Shown in pieces: positions 7,428 through 24,084 of a DNA stretch of 60,668 nucleotides. This DNA comes from Parcubacteria group bacterium GW2011_GWC1_45_14. GTDB taxonomy: Bacteria; Patescibacteriota; Minisyncoccia; Moranbacterales; GWC2-37-73. Positions within the stretch are counted from its first letter, which is position 1, and the number at the start of each line of letters is the position of its first letter. Below the pieces are notes generated by a model. It made no database searches, was not told the DNA's origin, and saw nothing but the letters and a program-made list of their open reading frames with translations. The stretch lies in the NCBI GenBank assembly GCA_001001345.1, contig LCKI01000002.1, positions 1-60,668 on the forward strand. Reading direction: 5' to 3'. Both the position numbers and the translations under genes were made by a program.

Positions 7428-8993
7428 TTATTCCAATTCCACTTGTTTGTCTTTCTCCCTGTCATATTCCTCTTTGCTCACATCTTCATATTTGTATATG
7501 TCAACAAGGTCCTTTCCTAAATATAGCGTAAAATCAGTTTTCGTTGAAGTCGGGTCATTGGTTGAGGGGGAGATGGTGGCCGGGGTTATCCTGATGAGTT
7601 CATCCAGGGTAAAAATCTTCTTACCGTTCGTGGCATCGGAAATTTCCGTTTTGGTCCTGATTTTATCTCCGGCGATAGTTTTGATTTGATAAGTTTTTAT
7701 TCCGAGGGCTTCGCTGGCAACCCGCCTCACTTTTTCTGCAAGCTTCGGATCTCCGCTTTCGTTAATGATCCGGAGTGTCGCAGCTTCCTTGGCAAATTCC
7801 TCTTTTCTTTTTTCTATCTTCTGGATGTCGAAAATATTTTCAGCCAAGTCCTGGATCTGGCTGTATGATCCGACTTTCGGAACCAGGATGAAGGCGCGGG
7901 CGTTTTCGAAATAGACATGGGACACTTTGAGTAGGCTATCGGCTTTCCAGGCGTCCACGACTTTGGTGGAGATGTTCTGGGTGTCGAGCTTTTTGGCAAG
8001 AAATAGGAAGCTTTCGATTTCAGCAATGGTCACGTTCGTCCGCACGTTATTTTCCAAGGTCGTCAGTAGGCCGTTGAGCGTGGAGATGTCGAGAAACGTT
8101 CCGAGGGAAAAAACTTTGTTTTTGACGGCTTGGATCGTTTGTTGCTGTCTTTTGGCCCGGCCGAAATCCCCCTGTGGGTCATCATGACGTTCGCGCACGT
8201 ACTTGAGGGCTGTCGTTCCGTCTAAAACTTGCACGCCCTTTTTGAGTTCGAATGTTTCATAACTATAATTGGGTCCAGGATAGCGCGAATCGTAGATATT
8301 CCTTTCTACGTTCACCGTCACGCCTCCGAGAGTGTCTATGAATGTGGTGAATCCGTCGAAGTCCACGACCAAGTAATAATCTATTTTTTGCCCCGTAATC
8401 TCGGAAACCGTTTTTTCGATAAGCTCCGTTCCTTGATTGTTTCTGAGTCCGATTTGGTAGAGACTGTTGATTTTCGCATGCGAAGCGGAGCCTGGGATTT
8501 TCACATAGAGATCTCTGGGAAGGGAAAGTAGGGAAACTTTTTTGGATTGGGTGTCGATCGAAGCGAGCATCACCGTGTCGGTGAGGTTGCTTCCCGGCTT
8601 CTTCTCTCCAGCCGCCCCGAGAAGCAGAATGTTAACTCGTCCCTTGTCTTCTCCCGAAAGAATCGTTCTTTGCGATGGGATTAAGGAAAGGGCCGCGGAC
8701 TTCATTTCACTGGCGAAGGATGCGGAATTTTCCTGGTGGGAGATTTTTCTGCTGACAGAATAAACTTTCCAAAAAAAGAAGGAGCCATATGAAAGGGAGA
8801 TTAAGAAAAAGAAAAGGGCTGAGAAAAAAATAAATTTCCGCAGCGCGAGTTTTTTTTGAAATAAGCGCCAATGGGGATCCGTATTACTTTCAAATTCCGA
8901 GATGCGCAAATGAGACTCCACCTTGGTTGTTTTTTTCCCATGATCGGAAGCGTAGGCGGGGCGCACGGTTTGTTTTTTTTGTAGTCCGTCCAT
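7428..8993 (-). CDS. LytR-CpsA-Psr (LCP) family cell-envelope transferase, membrane anchored
   Basis: TM segment FIFFSALFFFLISL, then NILLLGAAG...NLTDTVMLASID...VSLLSLPRDLYV, the LCP core. Confidence 0.85.
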   Translation of the reverse strand: MDGLQKKQTVRPAYASDHGKKTTKVESHLRISEFESNTDPHWRLFQKKLALRKFIFFSALFFFLISLSYGSFFFWKVYSVSRKISHQENSASFASEMKSAALSLIPSQRTILSGEDKGRVNILLLGAAGEKKPGSNLTDTVMLASIDTQSKKVSLLSLPRDLYVKIPGSASHAKINSLYQIGLRNNQGTELIEKTVSEITGQKIDYYLVVDFDGFTTFIDTLGGVTVNVERNIYDSRYPGPNYSYETFELKKGVQVLDGTTALKYVRERHDDPQGDFGRAKRQQQTIQAVKNKVFSLGTFLDISTLNGLLTTLENNVRTNVTIAEIESFLFLAKKLDTQNISTKVVDAWKADSLLKVSHVYFENARAFILVPKVGSYSQIQDLAENIFDIQKIEKRKEEFAKEAATLRIINESGDPKLAEKVRRVASEALGIKTYQIKTIAGDKIRTKTEISDATNGKKIFTLDELIRITPATISPSTNDPTSTKTDFTLYLGKDLVDIYKYEDVSKEEYDREKDKQVELE

Positions 8994-9087
8994 ACGCCCA
9001 GTTTACCTTTTTCAAAGAACTTGTGTCAAAAGCTTCGAATGCTGTTTAGGTCCTTTTTTGAGGCAAAAAGGGGCACCTGACTGACCC

Positions 9088-9116
9088 TTGCCAAAGCCCT
9101 AAAAATGTGATATCAT
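9088..9116 (+). promoter_or_regulatory. sigma70-type promoter for lepB
   Basis: TTGCCA (9088-9093), a 17-nt spacer ending in TGa, then TATCAT (9111-9116). Confidence 0.45.
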
Positions 9117-9206
9117 AGGCATGTTTCCAGGTTTTTTGCCTTGTTTGAGCTGAAAGCGTAAAATGGGAATTTTGGTGGACTAAAATCAGCCATATAAAAA
9201 AATATA

Positions 9207-17464: not shown

Positions 17465-19162
17465 ATGAATAAAATAAGGGTATTTGCATTCCTCCTCATT
17501 ATCGTCAGCGGTGTGCTTGTTTTTAATAAAGGTGCCAAGGCGGCTTTCGGCGATGTTTTTTGGGACAGGAGCATTGGTTCTTCCGGAATAGTTCAGGACA
17601 TGCAGGTTTACAATGGTTATGTCTATGTGTTAGGGGGAGATAATGCTGGAAATTGGTTTGTAAAGAAGATAAATAGTCAGACTGGAACGGTTGAGTTGAC
17701 CAAAAATATTGCAAATGTGGGAAATATATATACGTATGAAGGTGTTAATAATTATCGCTTTCCACATTCACTTTTTGTTGACGGTAACGGTGTGTATTTT
17801 TCCGGAAACATAGGCGGCGGATCTCTTATGGTCGGGAAGCTTAGTCATAGCGGGCTTTCTACTTTGTGGACGAAAACAGTTTCTGGATCTTATAATGCCG
17901 GTTCAATAAAGGTATCTGGCGGGCTAGTATATCTTTTTTATAAACAGACATTCGCAAACTATACCAGTAACCTCGGATACATGACTATAAGCGATGCGAC
18001 GCAGGCTGTTTCTGCTGGCACGGTTTTCAGTACAATAGGAAACAACAATAATAATTTTTTATGGAAGGAAGCCGATTCGGATGGGGTGTTTGTCTCATAT
18101 TATGAGAGCTACTCTGGTGGCACTAACGCCCTTGTCCAATGTTTTAAAAAAATCACGCCTGGAGGTTGGCTGAAATGTGATTATCCATACCCTTTTAAAA
18201 AAGAACCGGGTAGGATAGTGGCTACCAATACAAGCTTCCCAAGACAATTTGCAGCGCTTGATAGCTCCACGGGGAATGAAATCGTAAGTGAGGTAAGGAT
18301 CTTGCCGGGAGGGTTTTATCCTCAGGTTATGGATAATGGGAATAATCTGTTTTCTGCTGTAGCGCCATGCACGGATTATATATGCGATAGTATAAATCTT
18401 AAAATGGTTGATCTTGCGAATCCTTCTACTTTAAAAAATTCAATAAGTATTCCGTCTATTACGTATTTTGATGATTATTTGCATTACAATGTGGATTTTA
18501 TTGACAATGATGGATTATATTTTCTGATGGGAAATTTTAACGAGGGAGGGCATCTCTATAAGCTGGATGTTTATGATGACAACGCGAACTGTACCGCTAC
18601 TCCGGTTTCATCTCCTAAAAATGCAAGCTCTTCTTTTTCGGCAACAATAACATGTACCAACACTGGAAGCACGACTTGGGACGCTGCGCAGGGATACAGA
18701 TTGGGATCTCAAAATCTCGCAAATAATATTATCTGGGGAGTAAGCTCTATAAATTTTCCCGTAGGAACGACGACTGTCATCCCTGGTCAGCAGGTGATTT
18801 TCACTGGCAATTTCACCGCCCCGTCAATTGCCGGAACTTACAATTACCAATGGCAGATGACTAAAGGCGCGACCTTCTTTGGAGCGATGACGGAGCTGCA
18901 GTCCATCTTGGTCCAAAGTTGTTTATATTCAAACCATATCTGCTATAAATCTTCCAGCATAGATTGCGGACTTGCTTCCAAATGCGGGCAGACCGGAACC
19001 GAGACTGCGGCCTGCTTGGCCTTTAACAGTTGCACTGGTGCGACCGAGTCCAGGCCACTTTCCGAATGCGGAGCAAGCTGCGTGTCCGGCTCCGCGGTGC
19101 AGTGCCCTATATGTTCATCGGGAGGTTTCGGAACTGGCGAGTGGAGGGAAGTGACGCCGTAA
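17465..19162 (+). CDS. secreted protein with a possible NBR1/FW-like Ig domain and a Cys-rich tail (unknown function)
   Basis: Signal peptide MNKIRVFAFLLIIVSGVLVFNKGAKA. The segment CTATPVS...ATITCTNTGSTTWDAAQGYRLGS...AGTYNYQWQM resembles the NBR1-like domain. The tail contains 10+ Cys. Confidence 0.6.
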   Translation: MNKIRVFAFLLIIVSGVLVFNKGAKAAFGDVFWDRSIGSSGIVQDMQVYNGYVYVLGGDNAGNWFVKKINSQTGTVELTKNIANVGNIYTYEGVNNYRFPHSLFVDGNGVYFSGNIGGGSLMVGKLSHSGLSTLWTKTVSGSYNAGSIKVSGGLVYLFYKQTFANYTSNLGYMTISDATQAVSAGTVFSTIGNNNNNFLWKEADSDGVFVSYYESYSGGTNALVQCFKKITPGGWLKCDYPYPFKKEPGRIVATNTSFPRQFAALDSSTGNEIVSEVRILPGGFYPQVMDNGNNLFSAVAPCTDYICDSINLKMVDLANPSTLKNSISIPSITYFDDYLHYNVDFIDNDGLYFLMGNFNEGGHLYKLDVYDDNANCTATPVSSPKNASSSFSATITCTNTGSTTWDAAQGYRLGSQNLANNIIWGVSSINFPVGTTTVIPGQQVIFTGNFTAPSIAGTYNYQWQMTKGATFFGAMTELQSILVQSCLYSNHICYKSSSIDCGLASKCGQTGTETAACLAFNSCTGATESRPLSECGASCVSGSAVQCPICSSGGFGTGEWREVTP

Positions 19163-19197
19163 ACCTATTTATCTCATATTGTTTGAAGTTTGCAATA

Positions 19198-19224
19198 AAA
19201 CCCTGGAGAAATCCCGGGTTTTTT
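19198..19224 (+). terminator. intrinsic terminator
   Basis: aaaccctgg-agaaat-cccgggttt plus a T run. Confidence 0.65.
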
Positions 19225-19245
19225 AATGTCAATGATGATGCTGTG

Positions 19246-19283
19246 CAGCGTGGAAAATTTTTATAAAAATTTTCTTTACGCTG
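19246..19283. promoter_or_regulatory. 38-nt near-perfect palindrome upstream of the nrd promoter
   Basis: cagcgt-g-gaaaatttttataaaaattttc-ttt-acgctg. The core at 19253-19274 is a perfect 22-nt palindrome. Confidence 0.4.
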
Positions 19284-19318
19284 TGGATAACTCCTTTTTT
19301 TGGCTTGATCTCGACCAT

Positions 19319-19346
19319 TTGCGCTGTATTTGTCTTGTGGTATAAT
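19319..19346 (+). promoter_or_regulatory. extended -10 promoter of the nrdR-nrdD-nrdG operon
   Basis: TGgTATAAT (19338-19346) with a weak -35, ttgcgc (19319-19324). Confidence 0.5.
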
Positions 19347-19357
19347 GTACTCACGGT

Positions 19358-19373
19358 ACACAAGATATAGTGT
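19358..19373 (+). promoter_or_regulatory. NrdR box
   Basis: acacaagatatagtgt compared with the published NrdR-box consensus acaCwAtATaTwGtgt. It lies 12 nt downstream of the -10 hexamer. Confidence 0.6.
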
Positions 19374-19536
19374 AAAAGTATAAAAATCTTACTAAAACAC
19401 GAAAATCGAGAGTATCAAAATCAAAATGTTGTCAAGTTGTTTTCATAAAAACAAATAAACACGAGAACATGAAAACAAAAAGGCATAAATAAATTTGTTT
19501 TAATGCTAATTTGCTTTAATGTTTTAATGAAAAAAT

Positions 19537-19995
19537 ATGGTTTGTCCTTTTTGCGGGCACCTCGACACGAAGGTCGTCGATTCCCGAGATACCAATGACG
19601 GTAGGGCGATCCGGCGTAGGCGTGAATGTGAGAAATGCCAGTCCCGGTTCAGTACCTATGAGGAAATGGAAATAATGAAGCTCACGGTCCTCAAGCGCGA
19701 CGGCACGAAGCAGGAATATGACAAGAAGAAGATTGCGGCTGGGCTGCGGAAAGCATTGGAGAAGAGACCCGTGAGTGAAGAGCGGATCCAGAAGGCCATG
19801 GTGGATATCGAGTATGAGATCCAAGCCCGCGAATCCAATGAGATCAAGAGCAAGGAAATCGGAAAAATGGTCCTGGAGAAGTTGAGGGAATTGGACGAAG
19901 TGGCCTATATAAGATTCGCCAGCGTATACAAATCTTTCAAAAGCGTGGAAAGTTTCAAGAGGGAAATGGAGAGTTTGGAGCTTGAGAAAGTGTAG
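19537..19995 (+). CDS. nrdR: transcriptional repressor NrdR
   Basis: MVCPFCGHLDTKVVDSR...RRRRECEKCQSRFSTYE (Zn ribbon), followed by an ATP-cone. Confidence 0.95.
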   Translation: MVCPFCGHLDTKVVDSRDTNDGRAIRRRRECEKCQSRFSTYEEMEIMKLTVLKRDGTKQEYDKKKIAAGLRKALEKRPVSEERIQKAMVDIEYEIQARESNEIKSKEIGKMVLEKLRELDEVAYIRFASVYKSFKSVESFKREMESLELEKV

Positions 19996-20068
19996 AGATA
20001 ATCTTCCATCGAGCAAGTTTAAATAAAATCGAAATTAATCAATACTAAAATTCCGGGGGTACAAAGCT

Positions 20069-22375
20069 ATGAAAAAACAAACAAAGGCGAAAAAGACACA
20101 GAAAGCAAAAGCTGCAGGCGTGAAAAAGGCAGTTAAGGTTAAAGCTGTAAAGACGAAAGCCGTGAAGGTGAATAAAGCGGTAGTTAAAAAGCAGGCTAAG
20201 CCAGCCAAGAAGAGACCCATCAATGTCATCAGAAAAGTCGTCAAAAGAAGCGGAAGGGTCGTGCCTTTCAATCAGAAGAAAATTGAAATAGCAATCACTA
20301 AAGCTTTTTCCACCACTGGAGAAGGGTCGGCTAAGGAAGCCAAGGCTGTCGCCACCAAGGTCGCGCAGATGTTGGGCAAGGGAAAGGAAAAAGGATATAT
20401 CCCCGGAATCGAGGATATCCAGGACGCGGTGGAAAAGGTGCTCATGGTCTTGGACTTCGAGGAAACGGCCAAGGCCTACATCCTTTACCGCGAACAGCAC
20501 CGCAAGATCCGCGAAACTGAAAAATCTTTGGATGAGGCGGTCAGTCTCGTCGATAAATATATCCAGGAAATAGATTGGAAAGTGAAGGAGAACGCTAATA
20601 TGGCATATTCCCTCCAGGGACTTAATAATTATATCTCTTCGATAGTCAGCTCCAAATATTGGATGAACCGCGTTTACACGAAAGATATCCGCGAAGCGCA
20701 CGAGGGTGGGGATTTCCATATCCATGATCTCCAATTGGTTGCCGCTTATTGTTGCGGATGGGATCTTCAGGATCTGCTCAGAAGAGGTTTCACTGGAGTT
20801 TCAGGAAAAGTTTCCTGCAAGCCGGCCAAGCATTTCGGATCAGCTCTGGGTCAGATGGTGAATTTCATTTACACACTTCAAGGAGAAGTGGCTGGAGCGC
20901 AGGCTTTCTCGAACTTCGACACCCTTTTGGCTCCGCTCGTGAGATTCGACAAGCTTTCTTTCAATCAGGTGAAGCAGGAAATCCAATCTTTCGTTTTCAA
21001 TATGAACGTTTCGACCCGCGTCGGATTCCAGACTCCGTTCTCGAACATAACGATGGATGTCGCCTGTCCGAAAAACCTCGCCAATGAGGCCGTCATAGTC
21101 GGAGGAGTCCCTCGCTCCGAGAAATACGGTGAATTCCAGGAAGAGATGAATATGATCAACAAAGCTTTCGCGGAAGTGATGTCGGAAGGTGATGCTAATG
21201 GAAGGATCTTTACCTTCCCGATTCCTACCTACAATATCGGCAAGGATTTCAATTGGGATGATCAAAAATTCAACCCTATTTGGGAAATGACTGCTAAATA
21301 CGGAATCCCATACTTTGCGAACTTCGTTAATTCCGACATGGATCCGGATGACGCCAGAAGCATGTGCTGCCGCTTGCGACTCGACAACCGCGAGTTGCAC
21401 AAAAGAGGAGGAGGACTTTTCGGAGCAAATCCTTTGACCGGTTCGGTCGGAGTGGTGACGATAAATATGCCGAGACTCGGATACAAGGCAAAGAATAAAA
21501 AAGAATTCTATAAGGAACTTAACTATCTGATGGACTTGGCCAAGGACAGCTTGGAAACGAAAAGGAAATTGGTCGAGGGGCTTACCGACAAAGGGCTTTA
21601 TCCATACACGAAATTTTATTTGGACGCCATTAAGATGAGGAGGGGGCAATATTGGGCGAACCATTTCTCCACGATCGGCCTCGTCGGACTCAACGAAGCT
21701 TTGCTGAACCTTATCGGAAAAGACATTACCTCCAAAGAGGGACAGGAGCTGGCTCAGGAAATCCTTGTGCACATGAGGGAAAGGATCACGGGCTACCAGG
21801 AAGAAACCGGAAATCTCTATAACCTGGAAGCGACTCCGGCTGAGGGAACGGCTTACAGGCTAGCCAAGATGGACCAGGAAAGGTATAAGGATATCGTGTT
21901 CGCGAACGACGAAGCGGTGAAGGGCCAGAACGCCGATCCTTACTACACGAACTCTTCGCAGCTCCCGGTATATTTCACGGAAGACATCTTCGAAGCTTTG
22001 GACCTTCAGGATGGACTGCAGACGAAATATACGGGAGGAACGGTACTCCATGGATTCTTGGGGGAAAGAATGTGGGACATCGAAGGGGTGAAGAATCTGG
22101 TCAGGAAGATCGCGGAAAACTATGCCCTGCCATATTTCACGCTCACGCCGACTTTCAGTATCTGTCCGGTCCATGGATATATCGCCGGAGAATTCCATTC
22201 CTGCCCGAAGTGCGTGATTGAGCAGAAGACTGAAGTATATTCGCGCGTCGTGGGATACATCCGCCCGGTAGAGCAGTGGAACAAGGGAAAGAGGACTGAA
22301 TTCAATGACAGAAAGGAGTTCGTCGTTTGCGAGGAAAAGACGGAGAAAGTGAAAGTAGTTTCGAAGAAAAAATAG
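20069..22375 (+). CDS. nrdD: anaerobic ribonucleoside-triphosphate reductase (class III) with a Lys-rich N-terminal tail and an ATP-cone
   Basis: ATP-cone VVKRSGRVVPFNQKKI; core CCRLRLD; C-terminal CPVHG...CPKC and the glycyl-radical loop SRVVGYIRP. Confidence 0.95.
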   Translation: MKKQTKAKKTQKAKAAGVKKAVKVKAVKTKAVKVNKAVVKKQAKPAKKRPINVIRKVVKRSGRVVPFNQKKIEIAITKAFSTTGEGSAKEAKAVATKVAQMLGKGKEKGYIPGIEDIQDAVEKVLMVLDFEETAKAYILYREQHRKIRETEKSLDEAVSLVDKYIQEIDWKVKENANMAYSLQGLNNYISSIVSSKYWMNRVYTKDIREAHEGGDFHIHDLQLVAAYCCGWDLQDLLRRGFTGVSGKVSCKPAKHFGSALGQMVNFIYTLQGEVAGAQAFSNFDTLLAPLVRFDKLSFNQVKQEIQSFVFNMNVSTRVGFQTPFSNITMDVACPKNLANEAVIVGGVPRSEKYGEFQEEMNMINKAFAEVMSEGDANGRIFTFPIPTYNIGKDFNWDDQKFNPIWEMTAKYGIPYFANFVNSDMDPDDARSMCCRLRLDNRELHKRGGGLFGANPLTGSVGVVTINMPRLGYKAKNKKEFYKELNYLMDLAKDSLETKRKLVEGLTDKGLYPYTKFYLDAIKMRRGQYWANHFSTIGLVGLNEALLNLIGKDITSKEGQELAQEILVHMRERITGYQEETGNLYNLEATPAEGTAYRLAKMDQERYKDIVFANDEAVKGQNADPYYTNSSQLPVYFTEDIFEALDLQDGLQTKYTGGTVLHGFLGERMWDIEGVKNLVRKIAENYALPYFTLTPTFSICPVHGYIAGEFHSCPKCVIEQKTEVYSRVVGYIRPVEQWNKGKRTEFNDRKEFVVCEEKTEKVKVVSKKK

Positions 22376-22380
22376 AAACA

Positions 22381-22413
22381 CGGAGTCCGACTCCGATTCG
22401 GAGTCGGACTCCG
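22381..22413. repeat. 33-nt nested palindrome, copy 1 of 2
   Basis: cggagtccgactccg-att-cggagtcggactccg. Each arm is itself palindromic (ggagtc/gactcc). The second copy is at 32908-32940. Confidence 0.9.
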
Positions 22414-22560
22414 GTGAATCAGCAATCTGCGCCGCAAGGTGTTTGATATATGGGTTTTCGGACGAGGGAAGCTAGCCCCTTGCCCGGGAACGCGGATAAT
22501 AAAAAATAAAAATAACCCGTTAACGCGTTAACTCGTTAACCGTCTGACGGGAACAATGAT

Positions 22561-22827
22561 ATGGAACAATATACGTGCCATGATTGCAAAAAGACTTTGG
22601 CAAAAAACGAGGAGTACATGCCATACAAGGTCGGAGCTGAGGTTTATGTGAAATGCAAAGCTTGCCACCAGGCTGATCCTATTTTGAGAAATTTCCAAGC
22701 GACAGAGGTTTATTCTAGAGTCGTGGGGTACATTCGCCCAGTCAAGCAATGGAACAAAGGAAAGCAAGCGGAATTCGGAGACAGGAGGGAATATATGGTC
22801 GAGCAATCGGCCTGCGCTACTTGCTAA
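22561..22827 (+). CDS. stand-alone NrdD C-terminal domain homologue (Cys4 Zn ribbon + glycyl-radical loop)
   Basis: CHDC...CKAC, then TEVYSRVVGYIRPVKQWNKGKQAEFGDRREY. By hand count, 25/31 residues are identical to the NrdD tail, while the codons differ at many synonymous sites. Confidence 0.75.
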   Translation: MEQYTCHDCKKTLAKNEEYMPYKVGAEVYVKCKACHQADPILRNFQATEVYSRVVGYIRPVKQWNKGKQAEFGDRREYMVEQSACATC

Positions 22828-22842
22828 ATGATTGAAGACTTG

Positions 22843-22894
22843 CCCTGTTAAATCCGCTTTGCGGAAATCTGCTTCACAGATTTATTTAACAGGG
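22843..22894 (+). other. compact three-way-junction fold in the spacer before nrdG
   Basis: P1 ccctgttaaat/atttaacaggg (11 bp), P2 ccgc-ttt-gcgg, P3 aaatctg-cttca-cagattt, with no unpaired junction nucleotides. Confidence 0.35.
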
Positions 22895-22907
22895 TAAAAA
22901 AAGATGG

Positions 22908-22943
22908 CAGGGCGATATTTCCTCCCGGGGGAATATCGCCCTG
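22908..22943 (+). other. 12-bp perfect hairpin
   Basis: cagggcgatatt-tcctcccggggg-aatatcgccctg, with only a weak T tract after it. Confidence 0.4.
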
Positions 22944-23053
22944 AATTTCCTTTGGATATTTTTGAAAAATCGTAACGAAGCGCGCTACGTAACGAAGTGC
23001 GTCCGCTGATAAAGGAAAAACTTGTAAATTGGTAATTGGAAATTTTAAATAAT

Positions 23054-23749
23054 ATGAGATTAGGAGGATATCAGAAACTGACGCTTATAGATTATCCGGG
23101 CAAGATCGCCACGACTGTGTTCACTGTCGGTTGCTCTTTCCGTTGCCCGTTCTGTCATAATCCGGAACTCGTTCTGGCTGATCAATTTCCGGAACTTAAT
23201 GACCTGGAGACGGAGTTTTTTAAGTTTTTGGAAAAAAGGAAGGGTAAATTGGAAGGCGTATGCATTACCGGAGGAGAACCGACGATCCAGCCTGACATCA
23301 TTGATTTCATCAAAAAAGTCAAAGCGATGGGATTTTTGGTGAAGTTGGATTCCAACGGGACCAGGCCTGACGTGCTTCGCAAAGTCATCAAGGAAAAAAT
23401 GGTGGACTTCATCGCGATGGACATCAAAAACAGTCCGAAAAAATATTCCAAGACGGTGGGAGTAGACGCGGATATGGAAAGGATCAAGCTCAGTGTGGAT
23501 ATGATCATGAACAGCGGCATCGATTATGAATTTCGAACGACGGTCGTGCCGGGAATCCATAAGGAGAAGGATTTCGATGAGATCGCCAAATGGATCAAAG
23601 GAGCCAAGGCTTATTATCTCCAGGAATTCAGGGATATAAAGGTCATCGATCCAAAGCTGAAAGGAAAGAGGGACGTGAAACCGCTTGATCTGGAAAAGAT
23701 AGAGGGAAAGATTTCGGGCAACTTCGGCGTAATGAAAATAAGGCGCTAA
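23054..23749 (+). CDS. nrdG: anaerobic ribonucleotide reductase activating protein (radical SAM)
   Basis: CSFRCPFCHN (CxxxCxxC cluster) and GVCITGGEPT. It follows nrdD. The ORF track opens at a TTG at 23036. Confidence 0.9.
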   Translation: MRLGGYQKLTLIDYPGKIATTVFTVGCSFRCPFCHNPELVLADQFPELNDLETEFFKFLEKRKGKLEGVCITGGEPTIQPDIIDFIKKVKAMGFLVKLDSNGTRPDVLRKVIKEKMVDFIAMDIKNSPKKYSKTVGVDADMERIKLSVDMIMNSGIDYEFRTTVVPGIHKEKDFDEIAKWIKGAKAYYLQEFRDIKVIDPKLKGKRDVKPLDLEKIEGKISGNFGVMKIRR

Positions 23750-23766
23750 GTTTTAACGTTGATTTG

Positions 23767-24084
23767 ATGAGGAAAATCTTGAAGGGGCTGGCTGTTTTTT
23801 TGTTTTCCATTTTCGCGATGCTCCTGGCCGGGGCGACTTTTGCCGTGGATTTCGTGGAAAGGGAGGAGGATATTCCGGATGGAAAAATTTTCGCTTTCAT
23901 AAACGGCGGAGACTCCTATAGTCTCTGGATAAGGGAGGACGAGAAAAAATATTTGGAAAAAATTACAAGGAAAGCGAAGGAGTTGGTTTATAGGGAAGCG
24001 GCAGTGCATAATCCCGAGGGAGACATGCTTCCGGACAATGTGGACAATGATATTTCAAATGAGCTGAAAAGCAGGATAAATTAG
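23767..24084 (+). CDS. small exported protein, unknown function
   Basis: Signal/TM segment GLAVFLFSIFAMLLAGATFA followed by an acidic mature part. Confidence 0.5.
   Translation: MRKILKGLAVFLFSIFAMLLAGATFAVDFVEREEDIPDGKIFAFINGGDSYSLWIREDEKKYLEKITRKAKELVYREAAVHNPEGDMLPDNVDNDISNELKSRIN

Follow-up and report, generated by a model that had tools for sequence, protein, structure and literature searches.

Why would a bacterium encode the radical domain of an enzyme for a second time, as a separate protein, next to a gene for the enzyme that already carries this domain? The question is raised by a 60,668-nucleotide (nt) stretch of contig LCKI01000002.1 from Parcubacteria group bacterium GW2011_GWC1_45_14 (the window). 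Here, a small gene for an 88-amino-acid (aa) protein lies between nrdD, which encodes a class III ribonucleotide reductase (RNR), and nrdG, which encodes its activase of the radical S-adenosylmethionine (SAM) type. The small protein is a stand-alone glycyl-radical domain (GRD) of the NrdD type. The reading favoured here, and the one judged most likely if by no means secure, is that it acts as a detachable, trans-acting and exchangeable radical module for NrdD. The evidence comes mainly from related loci in which NrdD has lost its own glycyl loop and the small gene is always found downstream.

The full sequence of the small protein is MEQYTCHDCKKTLAKNEEYMPYKVGAEVYVKCKACHQADPILRNFQATEVYSRVVGYIRPVKQWNKGKQAEFGDRREYMVEQSACATC. 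It begins with a zinc ribbon of the Cys4(His2) type, C6-H-D-C9 ... C32-K-A-C35 (nt 22576-22665), continues as TEVYSRVVGYIRPVKQWNKGKQAEFGDRREY with the radical glycine in RVVG56Y (Gly56 codon, 22726-22728), and ends in a tail that closes with a terminal C85-x-x-C88 (C85-A-T-C88, 22813-22824). The profile PF13597 (NRDD) matched residues 5-78 on its last 53 positions only (E=2.3e-12), which together with the sequence bears out the initial annotation of the open reading frame (ORF) as a four-Cys ribbon plus an NrdD-type loop. The NCBIfam NrdD models matched far below their cut-offs and at their C-terminal ends only; TIGR02487, for example, scored 37 bits (cut-off 326) over profile positions 540-580 only. 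The three elements described for the GRD of a solved NrdD (PMC11226230), a Zn site, a Gly loop and a C-terminal tail, are present as CHDC...CKAC, EVYSRVVGYIRPVxQWNKGK and the tail, metal binding being predicted. The protein also has what characterizes GrcA, in that it is a small stand-alone copy of a C-terminal radical domain with the glycine conserved. In an AlphaFold2 (AF2) model made with the family alignment, the ribbon has a predicted local distance difference test (pLDDT) score of ~80, and the strands 47-52 and 57-62 form a hairpin with G56 at its tip. A profile search of the PDB sequences reached Thermotoga maritima NrdD with no better than E=0.13, over the Gly loop. Two other assignments were rejected. 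The small protein is not an NrdD catalytic subunit, as there was no full-length match and TIGR02487 stayed below its curated cut-off. Neither is it a member of the GrcA/YfiD family, as neither PF01228 (Gly_radical) nor NCBIfam GrcA matched at E<=0.1 and only NrdD models did.

The NrdD of the window consists of an N-terminal extension, an ATP-cone, a barrel with the finger loop M-C-C-R (aa 432) and its own GRD. The ribbon of this domain, C699-P-V-H ... C712-P-K-C715, is followed by TEVYSRVVGYIRPVEQWNKGKRTEFNDRKEF (loop TEVYSRVVG729YIRPVEQWNKGKRTEFNDRKEF). Between the two loop copies (22229-22321 in nrdD, 22702-22794 in the small gene), 25/31 residues and 67/93 nt are identical. The initial annotation had counted the same 25 identities against what it took to be the last 31 residues of NrdD; the count is exact, but 17 more residues, VVCEEKTEKVKVVSKKK, follow the region compared. 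The nine synonymous differences that it listed in the first 14 codons were reproduced exactly, and 13 are found over the 31 codons. Its distinction between CxxH...CxxC in NrdD and four Cys ligands in the small protein was also correct, whereas the 190 nt that it gave for the gap between nrdD and the ORF measure 185 nt. The insert between the ribbon knuckles is 22 residues long in the small protein and 12 in NrdD. The C-terminal GRDs of solved NrdDs (T4, 1H7A; T. maritima, 4COI and 4U3E; Prevotella copri, 8P23) are homologous to the small protein and have their elements in a like order, namely a structural Zn site, a buried Gly loop and a surface tail (PMC11226230). The small protein differs from them in being a separate polypeptide with its own start codon and a terminal Cys pair.

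To compare the two domains across genomes without bias, 80 metagenome loci were used that had been retrieved by a 144-aa piece of the NrdD core alone. In each locus, we recorded whether NrdD has a loop of its own (D) and whether a small gene follows downstream (m); one ambiguous locus was read by eye. A loop-less NrdD with a small gene (D-/m+) was found in 34 loci, or 30 clusters at 95%, both copies (D+/m+) in 24 loci (16 clusters), and a complete NrdD without the small gene (D+/m-) in 17 loci (16 clusters), while the state lacking both (D-/m-) was represented by 0 loci and 0 clusters. Fisher's exact test on the clustered counts (62 non-redundant loci) gave p=2.7e-6. Loop-less NrdDs had the small gene downstream in 30/30 clusters, and both copies were missing together in 0/62. 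Since the D and m states are interleaved among close relatives, either copy appears to be dispensable and repeatedly lost, but never both. Genetically, such a loss pattern is the mark of two elements that can stand in for each other in supplying the same essential function. With regard to the restoration of activity in the manner of GrcA, the 30/30 count is a genetic proxy only. These loci, together with the solo copies of phages described below, lend strong comparative support to the proposal of the initial annotation that the ORF is an exchangeable radical domain serving NrdD in trans. Judged from the sequences, there is good reason to expect that the small protein supplies the radical to NrdD in trans.

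The truncated NrdDs stop directly after the ribbon; in L004 (L-numbers label retrieved comparison loci, P-numbers proteins), the enzyme ends with ...CPQCVADAGRSEYAVIGEE at the stop codon. Decayed relics of the loop are still visible in some of them, such as ...CPKCVIEQKTEVFLKVGEEEL... in L016, ...STVYLKVVMAD before the stop codon in L009, and also TEVFLKV and TETYSKAI. The NrdD of L087, which belongs to the window's own clade, ends with ...TETYSKAI at the stop codon, and no further loop remnant was found in any frame. A tblastn search through all frames of the truncated Moranbacteria-type loci found no Gly loop other than that of the small gene. In L157, a loop-less NrdD is accompanied by a small gene with the variant glycine motif WTRVMGY. 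The truncated arrangement was found again on contigs from five different samples (L112, L114, L115, L116, L140). Two-piece loci are Moranbacteria-like (L004, L007, L009, L011, L013, L015, L016, L087, L103, L110, L112, L121, L126, L128, L130-L135, L137), from Desulfuromonadales (L040, L042, L044, L046, L051, L053, L058, L074) or from Thermotogae (L064), and there are further ones (L045, L070, L138, L141-L150, L152, L155-L157, L159, L162). In Desulfuromonadales, Thermotogae and other Patescibacteria, the enzyme is split in the same way, with small proteins of 48-75 aa that lack the ribbon. By their sequences, two-piece class III RNRs appear to have arisen independently in several phyla. Among strains with a complete NrdD, L088 and L089 share ~96% DNA identity across nrdD, nrdG and the flanks, and the small gene is cleanly present in one of them and absent in the other, a recent gain or loss.

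The mechanism proposed for the module has three steps. First, the neighbouring NrdG, presumed to be the activator of both glycine sites, would use SAM to abstract the C-alpha hydrogen of G56 and leave a glycyl radical. Second, the Gly loop of the activated domain would enter the NrdD barrel beside the cysteines of the MCCR finger loop. Third, the tail of the small protein would lie on the surface, like that of the built-in domain. The small protein would in this way replace the C-terminal domain of NrdD when the latter is swung out, unactivated or cleaved by oxygen; after cleavage at Gly729, the lost piece would correspond to the part of the small protein that begins with G56. In the window genome, where NrdD still has its GRD, it would be a second, exchangeable copy (a spare or an alternative module), and in related genomes with a truncated NrdD it would be the sole GRD of a two-subunit class III RNR. 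Cryo-electron microscopy and hydrogen-deuterium exchange of P. copri NrdD revealed that the GRD is highly mobile, moves as a rigid body and is ordered in only one monomer of the dimer at a time (PMC11226230). This mobility makes an exchange physically plausible, as a free copy could dock.

Several points weigh against this proposal. The window NrdD's own GRD is intact and conserved, which indicates that the small gene is not required for basic function here. The small gene is absent beside nrdD in 16/32 complete-NrdD clusters. The initial annotation had named absence from close relatives and neutral evolution as signs against its idea: evolution is not neutral (dN 0.2-0.3, see below), but absence is indeed found in these clusters. 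Complementarity was scored per locus, and genomes with a truncated NrdD could encode a second complete NrdD or another RNR class elsewhere. The truncated NrdDs of the Moranbacteria type retain their own ribbon, so that the complex would carry two. The AF2 model is of moderate quality, with a mean pLDDT of 66 and values of 44-66 for the Gly loop and tail, although a poorly defined loop and tail are expected for a domain that would be fully ordered only inside the barrel. A Foldseek search with this model against the PDB returned generic zinc ribbons only (E>0.2), which is uninformative because the domain has 88 aa and the model confidence is moderate. Finally, the role in oxygen repair is borrowed entirely from GrcA by analogy. 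That the selected role of the small protein here is repair after oxygen damage, and not another benefit of a second copy, is a tentative suggestion to which we give slightly less than even weight; the selective value of the small gene may lie in oxygen repair, in a higher radical load or in some other advantage.

The loss of the loop can also be read in another way: the small protein may be the preferred or even obligate radical subunit instead of a spare, in the window genome as well, with NrdD's own GRD redundant and on its way to being lost. The truncated NrdD with a small gene is the commonest state (30/62 clusters), the loop has been lost repeatedly, including in L087 of the window's own clade, and the terminal Cys pair, which has no counterpart in NrdD tails, hints at an added function. 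However, in genomes with both copies, the NrdD loop is as conserved as that of the small protein (median dN 0.09 vs 0.13 over the same 31 codons), and the built-in GRD evidently suffices in the 16 of 32 complete-NrdD clusters without an adjoining small gene. Although the comparative data can hardly tell a preferred subunit from a spare, we consider the former unlikely.

The conservation of the small gene bears on whether it is functional at all. At E<=1e-3, a search of a 5.8-billion-protein collection gave 487 homologues, of which the best 120 are all 69-113 aa long and the named sources are mostly Moranbacteria and other Patescibacteria. In the databases, these proteins are called 'hypothetical' or, by over-annotation, 'anaerobic ribonucleoside-triphosphate reductase'. 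When 1.84 billion cluster representatives were searched with a profile, 3937 matched (541 at E<=1e-10); the best 150 are all 42-159 aa long, and 104/148 new members among them have two CxxC knuckles, the glycine motif and a Met start. No family model for the stand-alone form was found in Pfam, NCBIfam or PHROG. In 44 diverse orthologues, C6, C9, C32, C35, E49, Y51, S52, R53, V55, G56, Y57, I58, R59, P60, Q63 and W64 are invariant. Orthologue pairs have a nonsynonymous divergence (dN) of 0.2-0.3 and a saturated synonymous divergence (dS), which could not be estimated in 93/105 pairs; this implies long-term purifying selection on the small gene. The order nrdD-small gene-nrdG was constant in every Moranbacteria-type locus examined, with nrdG directly downstream. 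The search for homologues and synteny that the initial annotation had proposed thus came out in its favour, and so did its view that the ORF is neither a recent duplicate nor an artefact. Taken together, these data make the small protein almost certainly a functional member of a stand-alone GRD family.

It could still be argued that the gene is a non-functional remnant, left by a duplication, by an intron or homing-endonuclease event or by the assembly itself, given that phage nrdD genes are often interrupted by introns or inteins (PMC3653736) and that hairpins stand on both sides of the region. The intact ORF, the invariant catalytic and metal-binding residues, the presence in hundreds of genomes and the saturated synonymous divergence all contradict this. 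Moreover, no Rfam family was found in 19000-24000 at E<=1, so that the spacer is not explained by an intron or riboswitch, the spacers of relatives are 35-100 nt long, and many independent assemblies look alike. By its conservation, the small gene as a remnant or artefact is effectively refuted and scarcely credible. A split of nrdD by an intron or intein was rejected likewise, there being no Rfam family, spacers of 35-185 nt, and a conserved start and N-terminus of the small gene's own.

The initial annotation had also described the ORF as an old paralogue of the NrdD domain held by purifying selection. The values of dN and dS agree with this, but concerted evolution of the two copies is seen in several genomes. 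Loop nt identity is 0.83 within a genome and 0.73 between genomes, and the two copies of one genome also have lineage-specific residues in common. Both copies begin with TEI... in L001 (90/93 nt identical), both contain ...VAQWNGGK... in L012 (30/31 aa identical, dS 1.75), and in L017 the copies are identical at 31/31 aa. L008 was also listed among the genomes with concerted loop copies. In the window, dS between the two copies is saturated and hence not estimable, and few of the same-genome loop pairs compared have diverged as much at synonymous sites. Gene conversion may explain the pattern in some lineages and shared constraint that in others, and the likeness within genomes fits two domains that must suit the same barrel and the same activase. 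As a side observation, P0156 (66 aa) and P0239 (56 aa) contain the glycine motif twice in tandem (e.g., ...EVYSRVVGYLSPVSHWNEGKKEEWEVYSRVVGYLSPVSHWNEGKKEEW...), which may reflect either true duplication within the protein or faulty assembly.

The C-terminal cysteines of class I and II RNRs pass electrons to the active-site disulfide. A terminal CxxC, CxC or CC is found in 105/120 Moranbacteria-type small proteins, while the NrdD tails of the same loci have no Cys pair and at most one Cys; the pair may shuttle electrons or bind a metal. This raises the question of whether the small protein is a carrier of a redox tail, in which C85xxC88 would pass electrons from thioredoxin to the active-site disulfide and, when docked, would give NrdD a thioredoxin-dependent mode. 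The MCCR finger loop of NrdD reportedly suits either formate or thioredoxin (PMC9669993), and Cys-pair ends also occur on some full-length NrdDs of other phyla and on some phage small proteins. On the other hand, the pair is rare in the wider family (11/145) and missing in 15/120 close relatives, and it could equally bind a metal. As the explanation of the small protein, such a redox role is quite improbable, and it could be additional to, rather than instead of, the supply of a radical.

The stand-alone GRD is not confined to Patescibacteria; it was also found in Desulfobacterota, Thermotogae, phages and an archaeal virus. The family has another large branch, whose proteins (~105-135 aa) share the Gly loop but have a longer ribbon and a helix at the N-terminus; NrdD and NrdG are not nearby. 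The contigs that encode three proteins of this branch are made up of small ORFs on one strand and include capsid, cement and DUF5131 genes. In the Desulfobacterota loci of such 'orphan' small proteins, no conserved neighbour was found beyond the local synteny of close relatives. A scan of IMG/VR gave 219 relatives, and 76 ORFs among the best 80 loci were classified: 62/76 are stand-alone proteins of 37-137 aa with neither NrdG nor an NrdD core closer than 5 kb, and 12/76 are full-length phage NrdDs. The PHROGs near the phage GRDs include tail sheath, tape measure, head morphogenesis, major head protein, primase, helicase and thymidylate synthase. A 144-aa protein of this kind (AJP62049.1; L250, 3908-4342), annotated in GenBank as a whole reductase, is also encoded by ANMV-1, a virus of ANME-1 archaea. 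The phage and viral stand-alone loci are L165-L168, L170-L203, L205-L207, L209-L214, L219, L221, L222, L226, L227, L229-L234, L236, L237, L241-L244, L246-L248 and L250. A virus that has a GRD alone could use it only with the NrdD and NrdG of its host. In L173, a radical-SAM protein (phrog_9298, 8339-9196) is encoded ~3 kb downstream of the phage stand-alone GRD. It could be a phage activase; no similarity to the NrdG of the window was found by tblastn at E<=1e-3.

The viral copies are also relevant to the idea that the small protein is a regulator or decoy, which would compete for NrdG or for the barrel, tune or buffer activation, or store a radical without catalysis. The small protein has all that NrdG should recognise (the ribbon and the Gly loop), the flanking hairpins could allow separate control of expression, and the GRD is tied to allosteric control in a solved NrdD (PMC11226230). 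However, phages with a GRD alone would profit little from blocking the supply of deoxyribonucleoside triphosphates (dNTPs), and the 30/30 loop-less NrdDs that keep the small gene would otherwise have no radical site. A role as decoy is therefore very unlikely.

The closest known system is GrcA (YfiD) of Escherichia coli with its T4 homologue Y06I. GrcA is charged by the same activase as the enzyme and takes the place of the domain cleaved by oxygen (PMC8683613, PMC13450708). Like the small protein, these are stand-alone GRDs, and both kinds are also phage-encoded; the logic of Y06I as a phage copy of GrcA is the same as that of the phage stand-alone GRDs of the NrdD type. There are, however, clear differences. 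The target of GrcA is pyruvate formate-lyase, whereas that proposed for the small protein is a class III RNR; the N-terminus of GrcA is disordered, and the small protein has a zinc ribbon instead. Unlike GrcA, the small protein is encoded between the enzyme and the activase, and it is the only radical domain in many genomes, which is not known for GrcA. The beta subunit of class I RNR (NrdB/NrdF) likewise holds the radical on a separate small subunit that docks to the catalytic subunit for each activation, but its fold and chemistry are unrelated, with a ferritin-like metallo-cofactor or tyrosyl radical and long-range transfer, while the small protein would put a glycyl radical loop straight into the barrel. 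RNRs in more than one piece also result from the split nrdD, nrdA and nrdJ genes of phages, which have introns, inteins and homing endonucleases (PMC3653736). There, the interruptions are spliced out or the fragments are of uncertain status, whereas the small gene is independent and conserved, and also stands beside complete enzymes or alone in phages.

A 2026 review of glycyl radical enzymes describes spare parts for formate lyases only and leaves other enzymes open (PMC13450708), in agreement with a 2021 JBC paper (PMC8683613). The initial annotation knew of no characterised equivalent for class III RNRs, and these papers concur. Open-access and bioRxiv full texts were searched for an NrdD radical domain that stands alone or is split off, and no account of one was found; an earlier mention elsewhere is possible. 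What is proposed here is the spare-part principle applied to class III RNR and extended to enzymes of two subunits and to viral copies. In its widest form, which is probable without being assured, the proposal is that class III RNRs have a widespread, unnamed family of autonomous GRDs that serve as spare or alternative modules beside a complete NrdD, as sole radical subunits of two-piece enzymes in several bacterial phyla, and as auxiliary genes of phages and an archaeal virus that would work with the NrdD and NrdG of the host. The small protein is a concrete candidate spare part for the enzyme by which strict anaerobes make their DNA precursors. If the proposal holds, the formate lyases would no longer be the only glycyl radical enzymes with a known spare-part system, and the first two-subunit class III RNR would have come to light; the radical domain of this enzyme would be detachable, and some organisms would run the enzyme as two subunits. 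The oxygen tolerance of anaerobes, including Patescibacteria with their tiny genomes, might then depend on a cheap part and not on the resynthesis of 770 residues. The phage copies suggest that a protein of 40-140 residues allows viruses to raise or protect dNTP synthesis in the host, and its gene would be an auxiliary metabolic gene of a new type. Many database entries named 'anaerobic ribonucleoside-triphosphate reductase' would need correction, and the natural pairs of truncated NrdD and small protein would suit structural work on how NrdG gains access to the glycine.

The genes and elements of the cluster in the window are listed in Table 1.

Table 1. Features of the nrd cluster in the window.
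Feature	Position (nt)	Strand	Description
NrdR-box-like palindrome ACACAAGATATAGTGT	19358..19373	+	1 mismatch to the presumed consensus; ~165 nt 5' of nrdR
nrdR	19537..19995	+	First gene of the cluster; TIGR00244 E=2.2e-56; repressor of nrd operons
nrdD	20069..22375	+	768 aa, full-length class III RNR; PF13597 E=4.6e-199 (whole profile); NF006126 1070 bits
NrdD's own GRD	22163..22375	+	Ribbon C699xxH...C712xxC715 (22163-22213), Gly729 (22253-22255), single-Cys tail; paralogue of the small gene
Perfect 15-bp hairpin	22381..22413	.	Directly 3' of the nrdD stop codon, within the 185-nt spacer
Small gene (stand-alone NrdD-type GRD)	22561..22827	+	88 aa, ATG start
16-bp hairpin with T-rich tail	22908..22943	+	Between the small gene and nrdG; terminator-like by consensus match only
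nrdG, radical-SAM activase (NrdG2 type)	23036..23749	+	TIGR02495 E=6.4e-65, 218 bits (cut-off 131)

The position of nrdR upstream of nrdD is kept in related loci. For the NrdR box, the window was scanned with what we take to be its consensus. At least one such match occurred in 18/100 shuffled sequences, so the palindrome is weak evidence, and the same scan found no second site elsewhere in the window and none before the small gene. A promoter scan of the locus gave no matches above the shuffled expectation.

The spacers that flank the small gene are long, 185 nt (22376-22560) and 208 nt (22828-23035), compared with 35-100 nt in relatives. The hairpin in the upstream spacer may be an attenuator or an mRNA-stability element. 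The same spacer contains CGTTAAC three times at ~22517-22547, and a further stem lies at ~22842-22895 in the downstream one. At its N-terminus (20069-20218), NrdD has a Lys/Ala/Val-rich extension of ~50 residues, MKKQTKAKKTQKAKAAGVKKAVKVKAVKTKAVKVNKAVVKKQAKPAKKRP, before the ATP-cone, and poly-Lys ends are common to many NrdD and small-protein tails in this clade.

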